Below, in pieces: positions 5,825-42,333 of a DNA stretch of 64,000 bases (position 1 is its first letter; each line of letters starts with the position of its first letter). Made by a program: the position numbers and the translations under genes. Source of the DNA: an uncultured Pirellula sp. (GTDB lineage: Bacteria > Planctomycetota > Planctomycetia > Pirellulales > Pirellulaceae); contig CAYMXM010000001.1 of assembly GCA_964394065.1 (NCBI GenBank), forward strand, positions 46 through 64,045. Direction: 5' to 3'. The notes beneath the pieces were generated by a model. It did not search any database. It was not told the origin of the DNA and saw only the letters and a program-made list of their open reading frames with translations.

Positions 5825-5876
5825 AAGTGGTCAGGGCCGGGATCGAACCGGCGACACATGGATTTTCAGTCCATTG
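5825..5876. repeat. Prophage att direct repeat, left copy (duplicated 3' part of tRNA-Phe)
   Basis: 52 bp AAGTGGTCAGGGCCGGGATCGAACCGGCGACACATGGATTTTCAGTCCATTG, identical to 42044-42095. Confidence 0.97.
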
Positions 5877-5957
5877 ATCAGGCGGTCAGCTTCTTCCGTT
5901 TTCAAAAGCGCGAACTAACCTGAAGGGAGACCACGTACTCTCAGAGGGGATTTTGCG

Positions 5958-7037: not shown

Positions 7038-7067
7038 GAGGCGTTGGGATCCCCCAACGTCTCTTTT
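7038..7067 (+). terminator. Intrinsic terminator of the int transcript
   Basis: GAGGCGTTGGG-ATCC-CCCAACGTCTC-TTTT. Confidence 0.7.
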
Positions 7068-7516
7068 CATTTCCGCGGAAACGCTTCTGCGTTGCCCGCT
7101 TGAGCTGACCAAAACTCGCGGGCTGCGTCCAACGTCAGATCCTTGTGCCCGAGCTTATGATTCACCGCGGATTTCAGCTTCCACTTCCATTCGAGCCGTA
7201 GGGGAAAGTCGGGGGGATTTGTGATCTTCCAATCGCGATAGAAGCGCTTGCAGGAACAGCCGTAGGAAGGAATCTTTTTCTCCCAATCGGTTAGCTGCTC
7301 CTCCGATTCGACCTCTAGGAATAGTTCTCGCCAAAGCCGCTTTCCGGCCTTCGTGAGACGGACCTTTTGCTTTCGGGCTTTGCGATTCTGTTGCTTCGTG
7401 GTTCGAATGAATCGCGAGCCAATCTCGGCAACGCTTTCCGGTTGCCAGTTCGGATTTGGTGCCTCACCGTCGATCAGTGCTTTGAGTTGCCAGTCAGGCA
7501 TTTGCGAGAAGAGCAT
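7067..7516 (-). CDS. ERV/ALR sulfhydryl-oxidase-like protein (divergent)
   Basis: GKRLWRELF...IPSYGCSCKRFY...NPPDF...WKWKLKSAVNHKLGH...TLDAAREFW parallels the ERV1 pattern G..W..LH...PC..C..HF...PP...W....HN.VN..LGK. The ATG directly follows the upstream stop, with a GAGGAGG RBS. Confidence 0.55.
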   Translation of the reverse strand: MLFSQMPDWQLKALIDGEAPNPNWQPESVAEIGSRFIRTTKQQNRKARKQKVRLTKAGKRLWRELFLEVESEEQLTDWEKKIPSYGCSCKRFYRDWKITNPPDFPLRLEWKWKLKSAVNHKLGHKDLTLDAAREFWSAQAGNAEAFPRK

Positions 7517-13452: not shown

Positions 13453-13477
13453 GTTAGCTCCGTTTCCGCGGAATCGC

Positions 13478-14169
13478 CTAAGCCCCGGACGCCATGCACA
13501 TGGCTTCGAACGACTCCTCACCCGCCGCTATCTCTTCGGGTTCGAACCGTATTTGCTCCGGCGCGACGGGGAACTGCGAGGCAAGGGAGGCGTGCAAGTC
13601 GAGCCTTTCGAGGCCCAAAGGCTCCAGGCTATGCAGTTCCCGCAGCTCTGCGTACTCAGCAGAGGTCAGACAGCTTAGCCAAGCGGATCTTGATGGAAAT
13701 CCGAGGTAAAGTGCGATTCGCCATTGCCATCGTCGCTCTTCGTCTTTGGCTCCGTTACCTCGGAGCTTTTTTTTAGTACCTCGTCAACACCGATCAATCG
13801 GTTGGCTCCGTTGCAGACCACCCACAGTCGGCTGATCACTCGGTTTCCGGTTCCAGCAATGAGAATCACCAACTCGTCCAGCTCCTTGACCGAGGTTGCG
13901 ATGCGCACGTTCTTCGAGTCACAGAGACAGTATGCGACCATGAACGAACGCCAGATCTCGCGTTCGTTCTTCTCACTGACTTCGCTTCGCTTGCAGAAGT
14001 CGATGAAAGCGGCATCCATCTCGTCTTTCTCCATTGCCGTTAACGACGCAATGTAAAAGACGGTGGACTCCCCCGCCTCGAAGAGGTGTGCCAGCTCGGG
14101 AACGGCGACCGGGTTGGGGAGGAGTGGCTGGGTTTGTTGTTGACGCAGTTTTTGGAGAAGGTTCATCAT
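13478..14169 (-). CDS. Tail assembly chaperone G-T (-1 programmed frameshift product)
   Basis: A8 slippery run at 13767-13774. The -1 frame reads KLRGNGAKDEERRWQWRIALYLGFPSRSAWLSCLTSAEYAELRELHSLEPLGLERLDLH...SGA* to a stop at 13478. Confidence 0.8.
13675..14169 (-). CDS. Tail assembly chaperone G
   Basis: Between the tail tube and tape measure genes; AGGA RBS before the ATG at 14169. Confidence 0.8.
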   Translation of the reverse strand: MMNLLQKLRQQQTQPLLPNPVAVPELAHLFEAGESTVFYIASLTAMEKDEMDAAFIDFCKRSEVSEKNEREIWRSFMVAYCLCDSKNVRIATSVKELDELVILIAGTGNRVISRLWVVCNGANRLIGVDEVLKKSSEVTEPKTKSDDGNGESHFTSDFHQDPLG

Positions 14170-22074: not shown

Positions 22075-23599
22075 CTCCCCGTTCTAAAAGTTTGTCGATT
22101 AGCAAGAGGCTGCTCGCCTCGGCGTGGCCGCGAAGGCTCGCAGCGTCCACACCGAGAAGCGAGTCAAACCACGCGTTGGCCCTGTCCGTGCACTCGGTTC
22201 CGACGAGGGCAGCAACGTTTCGCAAAGTGCTATCGATGATTCCTACAATGTTTTCGCGATCGTCCTCGAGGGGCTTCCCTCGATCGACACGGATGCAAGC
22301 TCGATTGATGGCACGAGCAAAAGCCTCCTCGAGGAGCGAACGGTAGATTTCGTTCCGATCCGTTTCCGCGGAATCGGTTTCCCCAACGGGGGAAAGATTG
22401 AGCGGGTAGTAGTACGTGTCCCCACCCTCGTAGCTATCGAGGTTCTCCCACCCGCGTGTTTCGTTCGCACTGAAACGACCGGCCTGAATCCCCGTGATGG
22501 CAATCGTATTTCGCGTTGCAGCATCAGCCCAAAGGAGGGCGTTGACGTTGTTCTCGATGTACATGCCAGCGGCCCGTTCCTCTTCGGTCAACAACTTTGT
22601 CGTGCATTCCGCACAGTTGCCAATTAACCAGTGGGACAGAGCGCCGTCGTGGTAGTTTCCCTTGGCGGCTTCCTCCGAGTTGAAGCTGATGGAATCTTTG
22701 AGCCCGAGTCTAGACGGTTGAATGTTGTACATGCGAGCCACCTCGCGAACCTGGTTCTCGTCCAATTCGAGAAGCTGGGCTTTCTGTGGATCCACTTGGG
22801 TCGACACCCATTGCATGTTGTCTCGAATCACAAGCGTCTTGAATGCGTTGTCCGAACCCGTGAATCGCTCTTCGATTTGCTTACGTGCCTTGGTTACTGC
22901 CTTTGCCGAAGTGCCTGGTTTGACTTGCAGAATCCCCCCCGCGTTCATGTTGTTGCGGAAGAATCGGGCTTCAAACTGCTTTGCCGCCAATGCGATTGCA
23001 AAGTCCTCCCGGAACAAGCGAATAGTGTTAGCCCCTTGCACGCCGTCGATCGAGAGCCCCTCGAGGTGGAGTACGTCGCTAGCGGCAAAGATTCGCGTTC
23101 CTTTGCGTGACTGTGTCACGCATTGAAGTTTGCCATTGATTCGTGCCATCCAGGTGCGGTCCGGCAGGAGTTGGTAAAGCCCGATCACCTCACCACGGTT
23201 ATTGCGGTCGATCCAAGCGTAAGCGTTCCCCCAAATCAGAGCCGAGGTAAAGTAGCGACGCCAGAACTTGTAACCGTTCACCTCCTCATTGGCCATGCTG
23301 TAGCGATGAATTACTTTTTGAACGGGGTGGCCATCAGCAATCTGGCGCCCCGACCTCGTCTTTTGATAGACGTTCAGAGGCAACTTGGCGCAGTCGCCAG
23401 ATATCATGCTGACCGCTTGATTGAGCGGTGCATACCCCAGCACTTTCGATGCTGTGACGGTGCTACCGGTGTCTCCCGTGTAGCTTCCAGTGGCCTCGGA
23501 AGCCAAGATATCAGCCGTCACCGGTTGCGCTGGATCTTCCAGCGAACGTGATACCCACTCCGCAGCTCGTCTTACTCCTCTTGTGAACCAATTGGCCAT
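22052..23599 (-). CDS. HK97-family portal protein
   Basis: AVSMISGDCAKLPL, LIWGNAY, EVARMYNI and ANETRGWENL motifs. Confidence 0.95.
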   Translation of the reverse strand: MANWFTRGVRRAAEWVSRSLEDPAQPVTADILASEATGSYTGDTGSTVTASKVLGYAPLNQAVSMISGDCAKLPLNVYQKTRSGRQIADGHPVQKVIHRYSMANEEVNGYKFWRRYFTSALIWGNAYAWIDRNNRGEVIGLYQLLPDRTWMARINGKLQCVTQSRKGTRIFAASDVLHLEGLSIDGVQGANTIRLFREDFAIALAAKQFEARFFRNNMNAGGILQVKPGTSAKAVTKARKQIEERFTGSDNAFKTLVIRDNMQWVSTQVDPQKAQLLELDENQVREVARMYNIQPSRLGLKDSISFNSEEAAKGNYHDGALSHWLIGNCAECTTKLLTEEERAAGMYIENNVNALLWADAATRNTIAITGIQAGRFSANETRGWENLDSYEGGDTYYYPLNLSPVGETDSAETDRNEIYRSLLEEAFARAINRACIRVDRGKPLEDDRENIVGIIDSTLRNVAALVGTECTDRANAWFDSLLGVDAASLRGHAEASSLLLIDKLLERGDDDAVAT

Positions 23600-26938: not shown

Positions 26939-28029
26939 TTGCTGAGCTGCCCCCGAAAGACGTAGCCTGCGATTCCTCCCGCAGCGAACCCGACAGCAAG
27001 AACAACTAGGTTCCGAAGCAACGACCCGAAAAACGAGATTACTGGTCGATCGGGCTTATTAGGTCGTAGCAAACCCGTGTCGCCATCGGGCTGTTGAGGC
27101 TCCGGCTTGTTCGGCCGAAGTCGTCCCCCTGTGATGGCGTCCACCAGGTCCTCGTCACCCTGCTCGATATCCTGCGTTGGCCAAGCAGCTCGGTAAAGCG
27201 TTTCCGCGGAATCGGTCGCATCGGCATCGAGGCAACTCACTTCCCTGGCGTGGGGTGGTAAGGGCTCGAGCGACTTAGGGAGTCGACCTTGCAGAGCATT
27301 CAGCACGAACGGCATCGATTGTCCCAGTCCTTCACCGCCCCCACCCCATGTGAGAAGACCAACGACCTCGGGACCATTGGAGGTGTAGTCGATGACGCTT
27401 GAACCCGATCGGCCACCGATCGCCTCGGGATGCCAAGTTAGAATCTGCCCCTCGGATCGATTCAACTTGAGCACCTGAAGGGAAGGCCATTCGCATCGAG
27501 GACACCCATAGGTGGTGATCAATGCGGATGTGTCCGGTTGTCGGTTCGCGATGGGGACCGGCTTCACGTCGGTACCGAATCCTTCTGCAGCTCGTAAGAT
27601 CGCGAAGTCGATCGACATACCTCGACCGTAACCACTTGCGACGATCGATGCGGTGGATCGCTGACTCCGGCCGTTGAGTTCCCAACGTTCGACATTGACG
27701 ACTCGTCCCTTGGTGGTCCCTGCTACGTGGGCATTGGTCAAGATAAGAGACCGCCCATTTGCATCTTTGCCAACGATAGTACCGCTTCCGCAAACGCCAC
27801 TTACCGTAACCCGAACCGTGGCCCGAATTACCTGCTCGAACGCATCGCCACCAGCGCCGGCTTCTGCTGGGCTCACCGAGCTGGTCAACCCTTGCGAGTC
27901 GGCTTGGTTCAGCGTGTGAATGTGAATTCCCTCGACGGGGAGACAACCGTTCGGTCCACAGACCACTTGAGCCATTGCTGGCGTGACGAAGAGCGTCACG
28001 AGAGCACTGAGTACTGCAAAGCGCAGCAT
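26926..28029 (-). CDS. Secreted trypsin-like serine protease with C-terminal membrane anchor
   Basis: Signal peptide MLRFAVLSALVTLFVTPAMA; triad motifs LTNAHV, IDFAIL and GGRSGSSV; C-terminal TM helix LVVLAVGFAAGGIAGYVF. Confidence 0.88.
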   Translation of the reverse strand: MLRFAVLSALVTLFVTPAMAQVVCGPNGCLPVEGIHIHTLNQADSQGLTSSVSPAEAGAGGDAFEQVIRATVRVTVSGVCGSGTIVGKDANGRSLILTNAHVAGTTKGRVVNVERWELNGRSQRSTASIVASGYGRGMSIDFAILRAAEGFGTDVKPVPIANRQPDTSALITTYGCPRCEWPSLQVLKLNRSEGQILTWHPEAIGGRSGSSVIDYTSNGPEVVGLLTWGGGGEGLGQSMPFVLNALQGRLPKSLEPLPPHAREVSCLDADATDSAETLYRAAWPTQDIEQGDEDLVDAITGGRLRPNKPEPQQPDGDTGLLRPNKPDRPVISFFGSLLRNLVVLAVGFAAGGIAGYVFRGQLSKWFS

Positions 28030-28568: not shown

Positions 28569-30290
28569 ATGGACAGAGTAACAACCAATCTATTGCAAGA
28601 GTTCGTAAGGGAAAACCAACATGAGTCCTTGCAAGTATCTGAGCAGTTTGAACACTTTGTTAATTTTGCGACGGTGTCCCGCGAGTACGCAGATACCTTT
28701 GACCACACCTCCGTCCATGTGGGAAAAGACGGAAACCCAGGAATCGACGGGGTTGGAATCATCGTAAACGGAGCGATCGTTGACGATGCCGAGGAGATTG
28801 ACGATCTATTGGAAAAAAACAAGTACCTCGAAGTTACGTACGTTTTCGTGCAAGCAAAAACGAGCAGTTCGTTCTCAAGTGGCGATATCAGCACGTTCAT
28901 TGAGTCTGTTCGGGATTTTTTCCGTGAGGTTCCCGGACAGGTACAAAGCGAGGACCTCAAGAGAAAGTTTGACCTTCAATCTAAAATCCTCAGTCATTCG
29001 GGGAAGATGCGAGCTAATCCAAAGTGCAGCTTGTACTACGTCACGACTGGCACATGGGTCGGTGATCAGAATTTAGTTTCCCGAATAGAGTCGGGTAAAA
29101 AGGATCTTGAAGACACAGAGCTGTTTAGTACAGTTTCCGTGACTGCATGTGGAGCGAGGGAAATCCAACAGTACTATCGTCAAAGCAAGGAGACGCTCGA
29201 CGCAGAGTTTGATTTCACTAACAAAGTGACGCTCCCATCGATCCCCGGTATCAACGAGGCACATATAGGCATCCTCCCAATGGGAACGATTCTTCGCCTT
29301 ATTTCCGACAGTGTCGGAAACGTGAGAAAGGCCGTTTTTGAGGACAATATTCGAGACTTTCAAGGTAGCTCGGAGATTAACGAACGAATCCAAACAACAT
29401 TGAAGGATGACGAAGCGGCGCTGAGATTTGCCGTTTTGAACAACGGAATTACCATCGTCTGCAGGAACCTCAGGTTTACAGGAGCACGCTGCAAGATTGA
29501 TGGCTTTCAGGTTGTGAACGGTTGCCAAACCTGTCACGTCCTTTTCAATTGCTCCTCCGTTAATCACGCGGATAATGTTTTTGTTCCGGTTAAGCTAATT
29601 GCGACACAGGACGAAGACATTGTCAATTCGATCATTCGCTCAACCAATTCACAGAACGAGGTCAAGCCTGAGCAGCTAGAAGCGATGACGGAGTTCCAAA
29701 AAACATTGGAGACTTTCTATAAGACCTATAGGAAAACTCCGGGAGAGCTTTTTTATGAACGCCGATCAAAGCAATATGCTTCCGAACCTATAGAAAAAAC
29801 TCGAATTATCACGATTCCCACTCAGATCAAATCGTTTTCCGCGTTGTTTCTGGCGGTCCCCCATCGCGTCGCAGGCTACTACGGAACCATACGCGAAAGA
29901 ATGAACGATCAAATTTTCAAACCAGAACATAAACCTATCGCATACTACGCTTGCGGCTATGCGTGGTACAGGCTTGAGACACACTTCCGAGTGAAGGGAG
30001 TTGACTTTAACAAGTGGAGGTCGCTTAAGTGGTATATGCTGATGATTTTTGCGAGAATGGCAGCTGGTGCTCCCCCACAAGCAGCAACAAGGGAATGTGA
30101 GAGATATTGCGAAAAGCTCATAAAGAAGCTGGATGACACCCAAGAAGTTAAGCGATTGTTCGACTCAATTGCAACTCGGCTCTCAAAGATTAATCCAAAG
30201 ACGGATAAGGATTCGGTGAAGACTCTGAATTTCAGAGATTCTATTTTGGATGGTTTCAAAGACTTGCTTCTTCCAGAGAAAAATCGATAA
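28569..30290 (+). CDS. AIPR family protein (abortive infection phage resistance), moron
   Basis: FEDNIRDF, FAVLNNGITI, QVVNGCQT and STNSQN motifs; opposite strand; AT-richer than its neighbours. Confidence 0.88.
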   Translation: MDRVTTNLLQEFVRENQHESLQVSEQFEHFVNFATVSREYADTFDHTSVHVGKDGNPGIDGVGIIVNGAIVDDAEEIDDLLEKNKYLEVTYVFVQAKTSSSFSSGDISTFIESVRDFFREVPGQVQSEDLKRKFDLQSKILSHSGKMRANPKCSLYYVTTGTWVGDQNLVSRIESGKKDLEDTELFSTVSVTACGAREIQQYYRQSKETLDAEFDFTNKVTLPSIPGINEAHIGILPMGTILRLISDSVGNVRKAVFEDNIRDFQGSSEINERIQTTLKDDEAALRFAVLNNGITIVCRNLRFTGARCKIDGFQVVNGCQTCHVLFNCSSVNHADNVFVPVKLIATQDEDIVNSIIRSTNSQNEVKPEQLEAMTEFQKTLETFYKTYRKTPGELFYERRSKQYASEPIEKTRIITIPTQIKSFSALFLAVPHRVAGYYGTIRERMNDQIFKPEHKPIAYYACGYAWYRLETHFRVKGVDFNKWRSLKWYMLMIFARMAAGAPPQAATRECERYCEKLIKKLDDTQEVKRLFDSIATRLSKINPKTDKDSVKTLNFRDSILDGFKDLLLPEKNR

Positions 30291-38128: not shown

Positions 38129-38361
38129 GATTTCACCTCGCATGGCCTCAGATCGTCGAGGCTCCACAGATCCGTCCGTTTTCGCCAGCCGGAACGGACG
38201 ACCACCTCAAAGAATCCCTTGAACAGTCCTTGCTGCAACACCTCGCCACGTCCGCATACGCGCGATAGGTGGTGTTCACGCGATCGCACGAACACGCGAT
38301 CCCCGGGGCGCGGGCTCCAGCCATCGACTGGCTTCGCGAAAGCTCGTTGTCTCGGTGTCAT
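38125..38361 (-). CDS. Small SH3/KOW-like hypothetical protein
   Basis: PGDRVFV...GEVL...EVVV...LDDLRP; overlaps both neighbours. Confidence 0.6.
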   Translation of the reverse strand: MTPRQRAFAKPVDGWSPRPGDRVFVRSREHHLSRVCGRGEVLQQGLFKGFFEVVVRSGWRKRTDLWSLDDLRPCEVKS

Positions 38362-39452
38362 GACGCGAGCCTCTCAAGCAGGGATTCTTCCACCTTGAGA
38401 TAGTTGTTCCTCGCAACCATCGGGGAATGCCCAAGAAGCATTCCGGCCTGCTGAGGTGTGATTGTCGGATCCGACGCCAAATGATTCGCACGCGTTGCTC
38501 GTAAGGCGTTGTATGGGGGCGCCCAACGTGGGACGCCGGCGCGGGTCTGCAAACCGTAGAGCCATTCGTAGCAGTTGTTCTCCGTGATCCTCGATAAGAT
38601 GCGTTCCTCCGGATCTCGGCCGCTGAGCAGCTCGGGGAGATGCTCGCGAATGGCCGGGTAGACCGGATTGACCCGGACGCGTTGATTCTTCGTCTCTTGA
38701 ATGTAGATACGGTTGCGATCAAGCTCGATATCGCAAGCGCGCAGGGCGAGCCCTTCCCGAAGGCGACAACCGGTCCATTGGCAAAGCCGCAACCAATAAC
38801 GTTCTTCTGTGTCGGTGCAAAGCTCGACCAGGTAGTCGATCCATTCCCAATGCACCGTGTCTTTGGAGCGTGGGGCAATGGTGCGGTTCAAAGCATCGCA
38901 CGGGTTAGTCTTGATCGCTCCTTTACTTCGGAGCCACTCAAAGAACAACCGCCAGTTCTTCGCGATGCGAGCCAGTGTATTCTCAGCGTATGCGTAGGAC
39001 TCCTCGAGGTCGGCTAGCAGGTCCGTGAGGCACCCCTCATCGATGCGAGGTACGTCGATCGATAGACGCTGCAGCTTGCGAACGTCGCGTAGAACTGCCT
39101 CGTCAGTTGCGACGTCAGTCGATTGTTCTTGGCGAAATACCTCGAACTCATCGATCCAATCCTCCCACGATCGCCGCTCCGGATCGATTGCGTGCGAGTC
39201 CTCGAGGTGCAACCGCTCCTGCAGGTACGCGAACTGTTTCCGCGGAATCGCTTTGAGCCAATCGGTCGTCGCTTGGGCGATCGGCAGCTCCAACTGCTGC
39301 GCCTCGAGCAATCGTCCGACGTGCCGCTTTAGTGTCGACCACTCACGTTCCCCAAGCTTGAACCGCTTGAAGCAAAGCGTGTCCTGTCGGCCAACGCGGG
39401 GCCCAGCCTGATGCCGGAAGATGAGTTGTCGATCGACGTCTCGGCTAAACAT
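38358..39452 (-). CDS. Tyrosine recombinase 2 (in the early operon)
   Basis: WTGCRLRE, NALRATR and LLGHS...NNY motifs, plus a core-binding domain. Confidence 0.88.
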   Translation of the reverse strand: MFSRDVDRQLIFRHQAGPRVGRQDTLCFKRFKLGEREWSTLKRHVGRLLEAQQLELPIAQATTDWLKAIPRKQFAYLQERLHLEDSHAIDPERRSWEDWIDEFEVFRQEQSTDVATDEAVLRDVRKLQRLSIDVPRIDEGCLTDLLADLEESYAYAENTLARIAKNWRLFFEWLRSKGAIKTNPCDALNRTIAPRSKDTVHWEWIDYLVELCTDTEERYWLRLCQWTGCRLREGLALRACDIELDRNRIYIQETKNQRVRVNPVYPAIREHLPELLSGRDPEERILSRITENNCYEWLYGLQTRAGVPRWAPPYNALRATRANHLASDPTITPQQAGMLLGHSPMVARNNYLKVEESLLERLAS

Positions 39453-39825
39453 TGCTGGCCTCCGGTTGCTTGGGAAGTCGATATTCCGCTCCGAGCCCCT
39501 TTAACACTTCGATAACATCTCCACGCGTGGCATAACGCTTGCCGGCGAGGACCAACCCCTCCCCCGATGCCATACGTCCAAACGCTTCTTTGATCCCGGC
39601 CATCAACTGCAGCTCAAGGAGACGATTGGCGAATATGCAACGGATCCACAGAACGCTGGTGTACGATTCGTGAATGGTGAAGTCAGCGTATTGATACTCG
39701 GCGGCCTGGCTCACATCCCCGCCGATTGAATGAAGCCAAGCCATCGTTACCGGCTCTCTTGCCTCGCTGATGCCTAGCGGTTGCTCGATCGTGATTAGTA
39801 TGTCCTGCTCAGGTTGCCGCGACAT
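39445..39825 (-). CDS. Hypothetical phage protein
   Basis: AAGGAGG RBS before the ATG at 39825. Confidence 0.7.
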   Translation of the reverse strand: MSRQPEQDILITIEQPLGISEAREPVTMAWLHSIGGDVSQAAEYQYADFTIHESYTSVLWIRCIFANRLLELQLMAGIKEAFGRMASGEGLVLAGKRYATRGDVIEVLKGLGAEYRLPKQPEASNV

Positions 39826-40156
39826 GACGGTCCTCCTTGCGAGACGATTGCATCGTGATTTCGTGGCGTGCAATGTTCACGCAACGGGGAGCTTCGATCG
39901 CGAGCTTCAAGTCGTCCGAAGTAAACTCCGACACTGTGATCGTGACCTCGATGTCGTCGACGGTCACTACGATTGATTCGCCTGAGTGGCGTCGGATGAT
40001 TGCGCCAACATCGCTTGTGACGGGGGAGGAGCTGTCAGTCGCGACCAGCGACATAACAGCTTCGAGACGATCGCGGCTCAATAGCGTGAGCATGATGCGG
40101 ACGTCGAGCACCTCCATGATGATCGATCGACCAATCTTTCGTCGTAAGCAGAGCAT
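39809..40156 (-). CDS. csrA: Tandem-domain CsrA/RsmA-like RNA-binding protein
   Basis: Unit 1 MLCLRRKIGRSIIMEVLDVRIMLTLLS; unit 2 IRRHSGESIV...IEVTITV...LKLAIEAPRCVNIARHEI. Confidence 0.75.
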   Translation of the reverse strand: MLCLRRKIGRSIIMEVLDVRIMLTLLSRDRLEAVMSLVATDSSSPVTSDVGAIIRRHSGESIVVTVDDIEVTITVSEFTSDDLKLAIEAPRCVNIARHEITMQSSRKEDRHVAAT

Positions 40157-40160
40157 AGGT

Positions 40161-40201
40161 TCATCCCTGTATGGCAGCCGTTAAATGGAGCCCTCATCCT
40201 G
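40161..40201 (-). promoter_or_regulatory. Two CsrA-type binding sites in the csrA-like leader
   Basis: AUACAGGGAUGA over the RBS (40172-40161) matches RUACARGGAUGU at 11/12; CAGGAUG at 40201-40195. Confidence 0.6.
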
Positions 40202-40258
40202 CCTCGCGTAGTACTACGAAACAGAATGAGGGAAATGGCCGCCGGCGCTCTTGATGAG

Positions 40259-40495
40259 CTACGGCAGCGACACCTCGATCCGCCTCTCGACGGACGAGGA
40301 GGTTCGAACCAACGAACTGAATCGGATGTTGTCAAATCGCCACGCGCTCCGAGAACGATCCACCGCGATGCGAATCGAACGAGGCAACGCTTTACCGTTG
40401 TGGATGCGTCGCATCGCTTGTTGTTCTTCGCGCATGCGTTGAGCAGCCGCGAAACCGCGTAATGCCGGTGTTCTGTTATTGCTGCTTGTTGACAT
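40259..40495 (-). CDS. Small basic hypothetical protein
   Basis: 78-aa ORF just after the 40520 terminator; weak RBS. Confidence 0.45.
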   Translation of the reverse strand: MSTSSNNRTPALRGFAAAQRMREEQQAMRRIHNGKALPRSIRIAVDRSRSAWRFDNIRFSSLVRTSSSVERRIEVSLP

Positions 40496-40519
40496 GATCG
40501 ATTTTGTTTTACTGGTTCG

Positions 40520-40563
40520 AAAAAGCCCGCCACCCCGGATTGATGATGCGTCGGGGTGGCGGG
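40520..40563 (-). terminator. Intrinsic terminator in the early leader
   Basis: Perfect 12-bp stem CCCGCCACCCCG/CGGGGTGGCGGG followed by CTTTTT. Confidence 0.85.
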
Positions 40564-40628
40564 AACACGAAAGGGGGCTTTGGTCCCTCCGCGTCCCCCT
40601 CGCAATCGCCTGACAGCGTGCGAGGGGA

Positions 40629-40751
40629 AACCGCCTGCAGGATTCGAACCTGCGACCTACTCGGTAGTGCAACAGCGCAGAGGTTCGACAGTCGGAGAAG
40701 TCCTCAAGCTATTGCGATACCGAGTCGCTCTACCAACTGAGCTACGACGGT
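40629..40751 (-). ncRNA. tRNA-like RNA with the anticodon loop replaced by a 57-nt hairpin
   Basis: Acceptor ACCGTCG/AGGCGGT, D arm GCTC-AGTTGGTA-GAGC, anticodon stem ACTCG/CGAGT, variable loop AGGTC and T arm GCAGG-TTCGAAT-CCTGC; the insert self-pairs. Confidence 0.85.
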
Positions 40752-40855
40752 ACGGCTCGATGCAAGAGCACCGAGCATGAGCCCGAGACAGGCAGCGTTT
40801 GAGACCACTCGAAACAAACGCCGCAAGGGCTTGAAGAACGCGAGCCACGCGGCCC

Positions 40856-40893
40856 AAAAACGAACAAAGCCCACTGAATCAGGTCCAGTGGGC
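40856..40893 (-). terminator. Terminator-like hairpin downstream of the XRE gene
   Basis: GCCCACTG/CAGTGGGC stem followed by TTTGTTCGTTTTT. Confidence 0.65.
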
Positions 40894-40901
40894 CACAGTG
40901 T

Positions 40902-40950
40902 CGGCAGAATTCTGCCGGCGTGCAATAGGGATTCGGCAGAATTCTGCCGA
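40902..40950. promoter_or_regulatory. Two identical perfect operator palindromes overlapping a putative early promoter
   Basis: CGGCAGAATTCTGCCG at 40902-40917 and 40934-40949; minus-strand TTGCAC-N17-GACACT at 40925-40897. Confidence 0.75.
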
Positions 40951-41202
40951 TTATTTTCGAAATTCGTCCATACTTATCTCGAAGAAATCGGCAATTGCAG
41001 CCGCGGTATCGCCACTAATTGAATACGGATACGTGCCGTTATACAGAGCTTGGGTCGAGCGTTCCGCTATGCCAAGTGCTTTCGCAACGTCTTGGTGGCG
41101 GATACCGGACTCATCCACAAGTTCCCGAAAACGCTTGCTCACACCTTTAGTAAACTCAAGGTTCGCGATTGTTGCCGCTTTAGCTGTTGCCATTTCAATC
41201 AT
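40951..41202 (-). CDS. XRE-family HTH regulator (repressor/Cro-like)
   Basis: RFRELVDESGIRHQDVAKALGIAERST...IADFFEISMDE. Confidence 0.9.
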   Translation of the reverse strand: MIEMATAKAATIANLEFTKGVSKRFRELVDESGIRHQDVAKALGIAERSTQALYNGTYPYSISGDTAAAIADFFEISMDEFRK

Positions 41203-41308
41203 CCCCTAAGAATAGTCATTAAGCCCGAACGAGCAAATCTGCTTCTTTTGTTTCCGCGTCGTGGCGAGGTTCATTTTGCTGTTCACCTGAAGTGGGTTTA
41301 GGCAGGTA

Positions 41309-41791
41309 TCAAACCGGCCAGAATGGAGCACCAAAAAGATCTTGGATGCGTTTCCGTTCCTCGTCCGTCGTGCTCGGATCTTTAATGAGAAGGTCGATTG
41401 CTTCATCGCAAACGCGACCAGACTTTCCAGAAGCTTCGTACACTTGCTCCTGGACCGAACGGATAAACTGCTTGGAAGCTGGAAAAGCAGTAGGATCCTG
41501 GACGATTGGTTTGGTCACCTTGTGGCAATCATCAATGCGGATTCTTTTCTTCTCACCCAACTCCTTTATCCGGCTGACTCCTTTGGCTGTGATGCCTTGA
41601 ATAGTCATAAACTTTTCGCCTGATAGACCTGCGATGCCGAGCCGAACGTCTAGGAAATTGCTATCCGCTAGGTATTGGCAACGGTGGTACAGTGTTTCCT
41701 CGTCGGCGTACTTAATCACCATCTGCCCTGGAGTACAGTCTGGGTTGTTTTTGACGAACCCAAGGATTGCTAAGTCAAGAGAATCGCTCAC
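41309..41791 (-). CDS. Winged-helix-like hypothetical protein
   Basis: LAILGFV...CQYLADSNFL...ITAKGVSRI; GTG overlapping the upstream stop. Confidence 0.65.
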   Translation of the reverse strand: MSDSLDLAILGFVKNNPDCTPGQMVIKYADEETLYHRCQYLADSNFLDVRLGIAGLSGEKFMTIQGITAKGVSRIKELGEKKRIRIDDCHKVTKPIVQDPTAFPASKQFIRSVQEQVYEASGKSGRVCDEAIDLLIKDPSTTDEERKRIQDLFGAPFWPV

Positions 41792-41925
41792 AGCTTCCTC
41801 CTCATCAGGCTCGCCGCCCCAGCATGAGACGCAAGAGATGTCCTAGTGGCGATTTCATCAGACGCCAAACCACTCGACCTAGCGCAAACAATCACAAGAT
41901 CATTAAGCGTAAGTTTCACAAGCAT
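41788..41925 (-). CDS. 45-aa protein, first phage gene after tRNA-Phe (absent from the ORF track)
   Basis: GGAAGGAG RBS; MLVKLTLNDLVIVCARSSGLASDEIATRTSLASHAGAASLMRRKL*; GTGA coupling to the next gene. Confidence 0.65.
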   Translation of the reverse strand: MLVKLTLNDLVIVCARSSGLASDEIATRTSLASHAGAASLMRRKL

Positions 41926-42043
41926 GGTACTCCTTCCTGATTGGATGAAGTGATCAGCTCTCCTGTGGTCAAATCGAAGGGGGGCACCGCCGTTAAACGG
42001 CTATGCTATGCTCGCGATGCGGTTGATCACTTGAAAAATTGAC

Positions 42044-42095
42044 AAGTGGTCAGGGCCGGGATCGAACCGGCGACACATGGATTTTCAGTCCATTG
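42044..42095. repeat. Prophage att direct repeat, right copy (within the intact tRNA)
   Basis: Identical 52 bp to 5825-5876. Confidence 0.97.
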
Positions 42096-42119
42096 CTCTA
42101 CCTACTGAGCTACCTGACC
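42047..42119 (-). tRNA. tRNA-Phe(GAA)
   Basis: GGTCAGGTAGCTCAGTAGGTAGAGCAATGGACTGAAAATCCATGTGTCGCCGGTTCGATCCCGGCCCTGACCA; full cloverleaf; CCA not encoded. Confidence 0.97.
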
Positions 42120-42333
42120 AACCCGGAGAGAGCGGGAGCTCCCCCTTTTGGGAGGGAAGATCGCCACAACCGTGAGGACGAATGTATTTCCAAAAGAGAA
42201 GTTTGTCAATTCAGCCTGCCCATGTTTGTCAAGAACGGCTCCTCACGGTACCCTTGGGAGGGGGATCGCGACGGTTTCCTGGCCAATTTTTCACCAGAAC
42301 GCTCTTGGTTTCGACGGTTGTAGAGGGCAAATT

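Follow-up and report, generated by a model that had tools for sequence, protein, structure and literature searches.

How does a protein of the CsrA family act when its two units lie in one polypeptide chain and the first of them is incomplete? CsrA is a global regulator whose mode of action is commonly ascribed to a symmetric dimer, with two faces that bridge paired GGA sites. The question is raised by a gene on the minus strand (positions 39809..40156, stop codon TGA at 39811-39809) of contig CAYMXM010000001.1 from an uncultured Pirellula sp., of which a stretch of 64,000 nucleotides (nt), hereafter called the window, was analyzed. The gene, taken from the list of open reading frames (ORFs), lies in a prophage and encodes a CsrA-like protein of 115 amino acids (aa). 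Sequence comparison and structure prediction together point to a single-chain CsrA that is monovalent and regulates translation, and we put the probability of this reading at roughly 0.5.

An earlier note on this DNA had described two CsrA-like units in the protein, the first of them truncated. This description was borne out by Pfam for unit 2 and by hhalign and hidden Markov model (HMM) comparisons for unit 1. Pfam CsrA (PF02599) matched residues 54-102 (E = 3.7e-11; 43.3 bits against a cut-off of 27), and CsrA chains of the PDB aligned with residues 51-111 (E 0.003-0.1). The protein matched PHROG 9500, 'CsrA-like regulator' (E = 2.9e-7), and phrog_5527 (E = 7.8e-6). Unit 2 (residues 50-101; 39854..40009, minus strand), delimited by Pfam, the PDB chain alignment and the predicted strands, is a complete CsrA β1-β5 that carries V93, I95, R97 (the equivalent of R44), E99 and I100; its β1 is degenerate (AIIRRH). 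Unit 1 (residues 1-41; 40034..40156, minus strand) corresponds to CsrA β1-β4 according to hhalign, HMM scores with shuffled controls and the predicted strands. It starts with MLCLRRKIGRS, the canonical CsrA N-terminus (L2, L4, R6, K7), and ends at the 'AP' position, without β5, an R44 equivalent or a helix. The N-terminal half alone gave no Pfam match at E<=10. Against an ad hoc CsrA HMM, however, unit 1 scored 8.3 bits, a value reached by none of 1000 shuffles (maximum 7.3), and the equivalent half of a homologue, P0002, scored 21.1 bits. In addition, the PHROG CsrA families hit P0002 in two separate stretches. A unit-1 profile of five family members aligned with CsrA columns 1-39, from β1 to the 'AP' turn (hhalign 92%, E = 5e-7). 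Since unit 1 aligns to these columns only, it is correctly called truncated. The acidic and polar linker (residues 42-49, DSSSPVTS; 40010..40033, minus strand) is a loop in the predicted model and stands in for β5 of unit 1. The C-terminal tail (residues 102-115; 39812..39853, minus strand) is predicted to be disordered from model confidence and DSSP, and the CsrA C-terminal helix is absent; this region of the gene holds the Shine-Dalgarno (SD) sequence AAGGAGGA and the start of the next gene, ORF126. Judged from its sequence, the gene is thus a prophage-borne member of the CsrA family made of 1.5 fused copies, namely β1-β4, an 8-residue linker and β1-β5, and we regard a two-unit, single-chain CsrA fold as very probably real.

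In 1.84 billion representatives searched exhaustively with phmmer, one full-length homologue was found, P0002 (114 aa, 34% identity). Pattern scans contributed two IMG/VR prophage contigs, L022 and L023, as well as L025, which is the complete genome of the cultured Pirellulaceae bacterium SH501. The four full-length homologues (L009, L022, L023 and L025) are 34-38% identical to the window protein and all belong to one sister lineage; full-length relatives were found only in related Pirellulaceae prophages. A word-index homologue search with the single protein or a two-sequence profile returned only the query and P0002, and tblastn against 50,697 phage records gave no match to the 115-aa protein. 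Among 301 genomes of the same order, the matches were to unit 2, that is, to ordinary CsrA, with no full-length relative, and eight metagenome loci all encoded single-unit CsrAs. Weak 'CsrA' matches in a 600-aa frame of contig C20 were rejected as ribosomal protein S1 repeats. The ratio of nonsynonymous to synonymous substitution rates (dN/dS) of the CsrA-like gene was about 0.2-0.5 within the sister lineage. The fused two-unit gene is, by these comparisons, genuine and under purifying selection. Both lineages have a common module consisting of an Xre gene, tRNA-like element A, a small ORF, tRNA-like element B, a long hairpin and the two-unit CsrA gene; in the sister lineage, this is followed by cargo genes, an ORF126 homologue and an integrase gene.

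AlphaFold2 (AF2) models of the 115-aa protein (predicted local distance difference test [pLDDT] 80, predicted template modelling [pTM] score 0.70) and of P0002 (82 and 0.73) both contained nine strands (4 + 5) and an 8-residue loop between the units. The strands were located at residues 2-6, 11-16, 19-28 and 32-41 in unit 1 and at residues 50-57, 61-66, 69-78, 83-88 and 94-98 in unit 2. The pLDDT was 86-91 for residues 1-40, fell to 64 in the 41-50 block, the lowest of the folded part, and was below 50 for residues 101-115. Where a CsrA subunit has five strands and a C-terminal helix, unit 1 had four strands and unit 2 five; DSSP assigned no helix in either model, and the tail was disordered. 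Both models matched the same uncultured-phage proteins of BFVD (81-114 aa) over nearly their full length, with template modelling (TM) scores of 0.6-0.8 and a probability of 1.0. These proteins of phage origin and the same predicted fold (A0A6J7WXS8, A0A6J5RUQ1, A0A6G5YD98, A0A088F6N9 and A0A2H4PHU8), one of which, A0A6J5RUQ1, bears the name 'Carbon storage regulator', are only 11-25% identical to the window protein, and the likeness is one of predicted structure. Single-unit phage CsrAs covered approximately half of the AF2 model (about 47-55 columns, one at a root-mean-square deviation of 1.5 Å). From these models, the most likely arrangement is that the chain closes on itself to form the β-sandwich for which canonical CsrA uses two subunits.

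Another view of the chain is that unit 1 is a decaying remnant of a duplication without any structural role, and that the working protein is an ordinary CsrA domain, extended at its N-terminus, which still homodimerizes through unit 2. That Pfam sees unit 2 only, and that the score of unit 1 alone is weak, would fit such a remnant. On the other hand, no part of the protein is better conserved between the two lineages than its first 16 residues and the MLxLRR motif is kept, there is no in-frame start codon near unit 2, residues 1-40 are modelled with the high confidence given above, and the dN/dS is about 0.2 across the whole gene. We therefore consider this explanation very improbable.

In the CsrA dimer, the sheet consists of β2-β4 of one subunit flanked by β1 and β5 of the other, and each RNA face is formed by β1 of one subunit beside β5 of the other, with L4 and R44 being critical (PMC7652899). 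When this arrangement is transferred to the model of the fused chain, face I would be composed of β1 of unit 1 (MLCLRRK) and β5 of unit 2 (VNIARHEI, in which R97 corresponds to R44), and face II would have to be composed of β1 of unit 2 and the missing β5 of unit 1, and would be degenerate. Both critical residues are present for face I, L4 in unit 1 and R97 in unit 2. The identity between the two lineages was highest in β1-β2 of unit 1 (9/16) and in the segment from 'AP' to β5 of unit 2 (7-8/13), and lowest in the linker (1/8) and in β1-β2 of unit 2 (4/17). The two best-conserved segments, those of face I, carry L2, L4, R6, K/R7 and R97. L2, L4, R5 and R6 were invariant in the family and R97 was kept in four of the five sequences, and the second face has S or D at the R44 position. 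The net charge was +3/+4 for face I and 0/−1, neutral to acidic, for face II. Given that conservation is highest in the segments of face I, with face II being degenerate, the protein is most likely a monovalent single-chain CsrA rather than a two-site bridger. For a symmetric homodimer with two faces, the asymmetry of the sequence and the predicted single-chain fold argue for one face instead, and it is somewhat probable that only one functional RNA face exists.

The comparison with the canonical CsrA/RsmA/RsmE homodimer (PF02599; PDB 1Y00, 2JPP and 5DMB) shows both what is retained and what is lost. Unit 2 is a bona fide CsrA domain and unit 1 aligns to residues 1-39; L4 and R44 are both present, here one per unit, and A-N-GGA RNA at ribosome-binding sites (RBSs) is the expected ligand. 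Unlike the canonical protein, the fused chain is a single, prophage-encoded polypeptide whose first unit has no β5 and which has no C-terminal helix. In place of two symmetric faces it is predicted to retain one, and no dual-site bridging is expected. A parallel is an engineered CsrA heterodimer with one R44A face, which, in the account that PMC7652899 gives of Mercante et al. 2009, binds RNA but does not bridge two sites and represses glgC incompletely. Both would have a CsrA body with a single working RNA surface, which is a prediction for the fused chain. The heterodimer, however, is a two-chain laboratory construct, whereas the one-faced state of the fused chain seems to be natural, covalent and selected.

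CsrA genes on mobile elements are documented: csrA alleles occur in 30 of 2517 phage genomes (PMC7366521), and the plasmid protein RsmQ interferes with host Rsm networks and forms homodimers and heterodimers (PMC9928087). The fused chain resembles these proteins and PHROG 9500 in its mobile carriage and presumably in modulating host post-transcriptional control. The CsrAs of Vibrio, Pseudomonas and Acinetobacter phages found by tblastn are, unlike the 115-aa chain, single units of about 55-70 aa. Full-length tandem CsrAs also occur in metagenomes (P0007, P0008 and P0011-P0023; 124-204 aa, two units, planctomycete-type sequences), forming about 17 clusters, none of which is specifically named. 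In these proteins, both units are complete (MLVLSR...VHRQEVY plus helix) and are joined by linkers of 20-40 aa, and two working faces are expected. In contrast, the proteins of the prophage family are compact, with 114-115 aa, as well as asymmetric and strongly diverged: unit 1 ends at 'AP', the linker has 8 residues, and there is no helix. Among the metagenomic proteins, P0005 and P0009 have three or four CsrA units, and P0004 has, by appearance, a ribosomal protein S17-like N-terminus followed by two CsrA units. Fused or one-faced natural CsrAs are not mentioned in PMC7366521, PMC9928087, PMC7652899 or the 2026 survey of more than 20,000 homologues (PMC13443453). Phage-borne csrA is thus already documented, and we found no published description of the compact form with one and a half fused copies.

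The host genome encodes four canonical CsrA paralogues and FliW, and the protein could be directed against this system: a closed, helix-less, one-faced mimic might compete with host CsrA for single sites or titrate FliW or decoy RNAs, thereby shifting the Csr balance during lysogeny or induction. The C-terminal helix or extension is absent from both units and the host has FliW, RsmQ provides a precedent for interference, and the one-faced engineered CsrA represses glgC incompletely according to the account in PMC7652899. However, such an antagonist depends on the same one-face model, and the scan of the host genome with the CsrA consensus gave no candidate host targets. We regard this possibility as quite unlikely.

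If the protein is a translational regulator, the best candidate for its target is its own RBS. The earlier note had reported here an 11/12 match to RUACARGGAUGU, the consensus obtained for CsrA by in vitro selection of ligands (SELEX), and our consensus scan found it as described: the site AUACAGGGAUGA (40161..40172, minus strand; ATACAGGGATGA at 40172-40161) ends 4 nt before the ATG at 40156 and would be a single site overlapping the SD region. This consensus is that of E. coli CsrA, and planctomycete CsrAs may have another specificity. The ACA and GGA elements of the ACA-N-GGA core are 100% conserved among the CsrA SELEX ligands (PMC7652899). The core ACAnGGA is present at the RBS in both lineages, as ACAGGGA in the window and ACAUGGA in the sister lineage, in leaders that are otherwise unalignable. 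The motif was predicted to be about half accessible (mean probability of being unpaired, 0.49).

The match could also be an ordinary purine-rich ribosome-binding region that fits the consensus by chance, with the protein acting on other RNAs only, for instance on flagellar or motility mRNAs of the host, on its Csr-type decoy RNAs or on the tRNA-like RNAs nearby. The site is the sole match with at most one mismatch in the window, for which 0.5 such matches are expected, and 40 of 100 shuffles contained at least one, so that having a match somewhere is nothing unusual. What is unusual is where it lies: the chance of such a site within the approximately 25 nt before any of five CsrA-family genes is, by rough arithmetic, about 3e-4. 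The predicted local structure is not the canonical GGA in a loop, the sister lineage has a plain strong SD sequence, GGAGGAGG, and every copy of the module has two tRNA-like RNAs along with long hairpins that could serve as ligands, all of which suit a chance match. The ACA triplet, however, has no role in ribosome binding and is kept in both lineages. On balance, we hold a chance match to be rather doubtful, and the binding of the CsrA-like protein to its own RBS is put forward tentatively.

It is also conceivable that host CsrA reads this site, so that the status of the host Csr system would set the translation of the CsrA-like gene, ORF126 and the integrase gene, which would amount to sensing host physiology. 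The four paralogues and FliW together with a GGA-rich host csrA leader make an active Csr system likely, and the site fits a consensus derived for canonical CsrA. That consensus comes from E. coli CsrA, however, and may not represent the planctomycete specificity; moreover, canonical CsrA usually uses at least two sites, and the second GGA in this leader is buried in a 17-bp stem. Reading by host CsrA, which is compatible with autoregulation, appears unlikely to us. The best-scoring host csrA (L001, contig C29) has 10 GGA triplets in its 120-nt leader, with ACAGGAUACAGGAG and CCAAGGAUUCGAGGAAGGGAAG just before the start codon, which suggests classical CsrA autoregulation in the host.

The second GGA lies in a hairpin upstream of the RBS (40191..40232, minus strand). 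As the earlier note had it, CAGGAUG is located in the 3' arm of this hairpin (CAGGATG at 40201-40195, 33 nt upstream of the RBS GGA). The 11-bp stem extends to 17 bp, G-U pairs included; the fold has a z-score of −3.7, and none of 200 shuffles folded as well. The CAGGAUG is wholly base-paired (probability of being unpaired, 0.00). The hairpin is a remnant of the anticodon arm of a tRNA-like element and is homologous to the anticodon arm of tRNA-like element B in L009, L022 and L023, in which the GGA is not conserved. In the sister lineage there is also a hairpin unrelated to this one; its stem measures 16 bp in L009, with about 13 bp conserved lineage-wide, and its 3' arm ends in GCAGGAU. It is capped by a GNRA loop in L009, L022 and L023 and by a larger loop in SH501, which reads GCAGGGU at this position and has thereby lost the GGA. 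The leader hairpins of the two lineages were therefore rejected as homologous CsrA sites, one being a tRNA-like anticodon arm and the other a different stem. Since the upstream GGA of the window is buried and not conserved in the corresponding arm of the relatives, and that of the sister-lineage hairpin is lost in SH501, there is no conserved second site. Furthermore, with a single retained RNA face, one molecule is unlikely to bridge two sites. The idea of a bridge between paired sites, which had been put forward from the sequence, was thus not supported: the upstream CAGGAUG is fully paired and not conserved, and the protein appears to keep one canonical face.

On the reading that we prefer, the monovalent translational regulator, the fused chain would bind one A-N-GGA site per molecule without being able to bridge two, and would repress translation through its hold on one GGA site in or close to the SD region. 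With its own RBS as the target, the result would be negative autoregulation, and repression there would also damp ORF126 and the integrase through the overlapping frames. Autoregulation of csrA and single-site targets overlapping the SD sequence are established for E. coli CsrA (PMC7652899), and autoregulation is plausible here in view of the leader sequence. ORF126 (39445..39825, minus strand) starts 17 nt inside the CsrA-like gene, with its SD sequence within that gene; the tyrosine integrase gene (38358..39452, minus strand; Pfam Phage_integrase; PHROG 1 integrase, E = 2.5e-18) starts 8 nt before the end of ORF126. The CsrA-like gene is thus the head of an operon of overlapping genes (CsrA-like, ORF126 and integrase), and because of this overlap translational control could plausibly pass downstream. 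ORF126 had no Pfam or PHROG match, is 36% identical to an ORF of L022 (E = 4e-21) and adjoins the integrase gene in the relatives too; the integrase is 67% identical to that of L022.

Several points weigh against this reading. An intramolecular CsrA pseudo-dimer had been proposed as something for AlphaFold to reveal; the confident nine-strand fold was obtained for both lineages, but a Foldseek search of the model against the PDB gave no significant match, and the pseudo-dimer topology is deduced from the strand order, pTM and BFVD matches. Daisy-chained or swapped oligomers, which are possible, would restore bivalency. One family member has Leu at the R44-equivalent position (L023, 1668-2012; IYLREL versus IYRREL); this is one of two prophage copies in the same IMG genome and may be inactivated or altered. 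At the RBS, the predicted structure pairs the GGG with codons 2-3 and does not present it in a hexaloop, and the last consensus base (U) is replaced by A. Conservation of ACAnGGA across two lineages only is weak evidence, and GGA-rich RBSs are ordinary SD sequences too. The full motif was not found at the start of any other prophage gene, and the 24 sites with at most one mismatch in the 5.8-Mb genome showed no obvious motif excess and no obvious RBS regulon.

In a wider and more speculative form, which we think unlikely to hold in full, compact single-chain CsrAs would be a natural class of monovalent GGA-binding proteins spread by phages, serving here as a self-limiting translational gate on the integrase operon. 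The gene at the head of this operon would lie in a conserved leader with much structured RNA, namely two tRNA-like RNAs and long hairpins, some of them GNRA-capped, and the protein would not heterodimerize with host CsrA and, without a C-terminal helix, might be blind to FliW. If the monovalent reading is true, evolution would have produced a 'one-faced CsrA', a form hitherto confined to a laboratory construct, and temperate phages would add a layer of translational control, in this case before the integrase, that is undiluted by host CsrA subunits. Structural work and the building of RNA tools would also gain a simple, monomeric module that binds GGA.

The assignment of the gene to a phage, made in the earlier note, was confirmed. 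A 55-nt direct repeat, 98% identical between 42044..42098 (unstranded) and its partner at 5825-5879, is an attachment (att) repeat that copies the 3' part of tRNA-Phe (42046-42119) and bounds a 36-kb element with terminase, portal, major head (capsid) and tape-measure genes. From these att repeats and structural genes, the element is concluded to be a prophage. On the minus strand, the order from the tRNA-Phe end is an unknown ORF, a gene with an Xre-type helix-turn-helix domain, two palindromes, a 123-nt tRNA-like RNA, a terminator-like hairpin, a possible 78-aa ORF and half a tRNA-like element with the 17-bp hairpin, followed by the CsrA-like gene, ORF126 and the integrase gene. A σ70 promoter scan of 39400-42200 gave no minus-strand promoter. 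The terminator-like hairpin, read from the sequence (40520..40563, minus strand), is GC-rich with a loop of more than 8 nt, is followed by UUUUU, and is located upstream both of the small ORF and of the CsrA-like gene.

Throughout this prophage family, the two-unit CsrA gene is preceded by a pair of tRNA-like elements whose anticodon arms or loops are enlarged by insertions of 8 to 57 nt. They are located at 40629-40751 and 40191-40268 (both minus strand) in the window, at 59-133 and 389-481 in L009, at 1048-1124 and 1380-1473 in L022 and at 2418-2494 and 2750-2843 in L025, and are called by Rfam but not by ARAGORN. Element A of the window (40629..40751, minus strand; 123 nt; Rfam tRNA, 45.6 bits; not called by ARAGORN) carries an insertion of 57 nt where the anticodon loop would be, is predicted to form a cloverleaf with a long arm and has counterparts in the relatives; in the sister lineage, its loop reads UUUCCUCCUACU and contains the anti-SD sequence CCUCC. 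The second element of the window, B' (40233..40268, minus strand; GCUGCCGUAGCUCAUCAAGAGCG...), is a 5' half in which the T arm and the 3' acceptor strand are missing; it has a 16-nt stretch identical to the complete element B of L009, L022, L023 and L025 (Rfam tRNA, 43-48 bits).

A 77-aa ORF lies between the two tRNA-like elements of the relatives (165-398 in L009, 1156-1389 in L022 and the same position in L023), and with a dN/dS of 0.12-0.21 in the sister lineage it is probably coding. The 78-aa ORF in the same place in the window (40259-40495, minus strand) has only the last residues, EVSLP, in common with it, and these overlap the 5' end of the tRNA-like element. The 78-aa ORF gave no family match, and homology to the 77-aa ORF of the relatives was not demonstrable beyond these last residues.

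Two identical 18-nt palindromes, TCGGCAGAATTCTGCCGA, flank TTGCAC directly after the stop codon of the Xre gene (40897-40950, minus strand) and look like operators of an immunity region; a terminator-like hairpin follows them at 40894-40868. In addition, a motif with the palindrome GTTTCCGCGGAA(T/A)CG at its centre occurs inside the prophage in five scattered copies (7063-7087, 13456-13480, 22356-22380, 27194-27218 and 39230-39254), and one copy falls within the integrase gene. Just one long gene of the prophage is on the plus strand (28569-30290); it matches the Abi-alpha-like abortive-infection protein of PHROG 1841 (E = 1.4e-85) and lies in a stretch of lower GC content (0.48); it is therefore probably a moron or defence gene.

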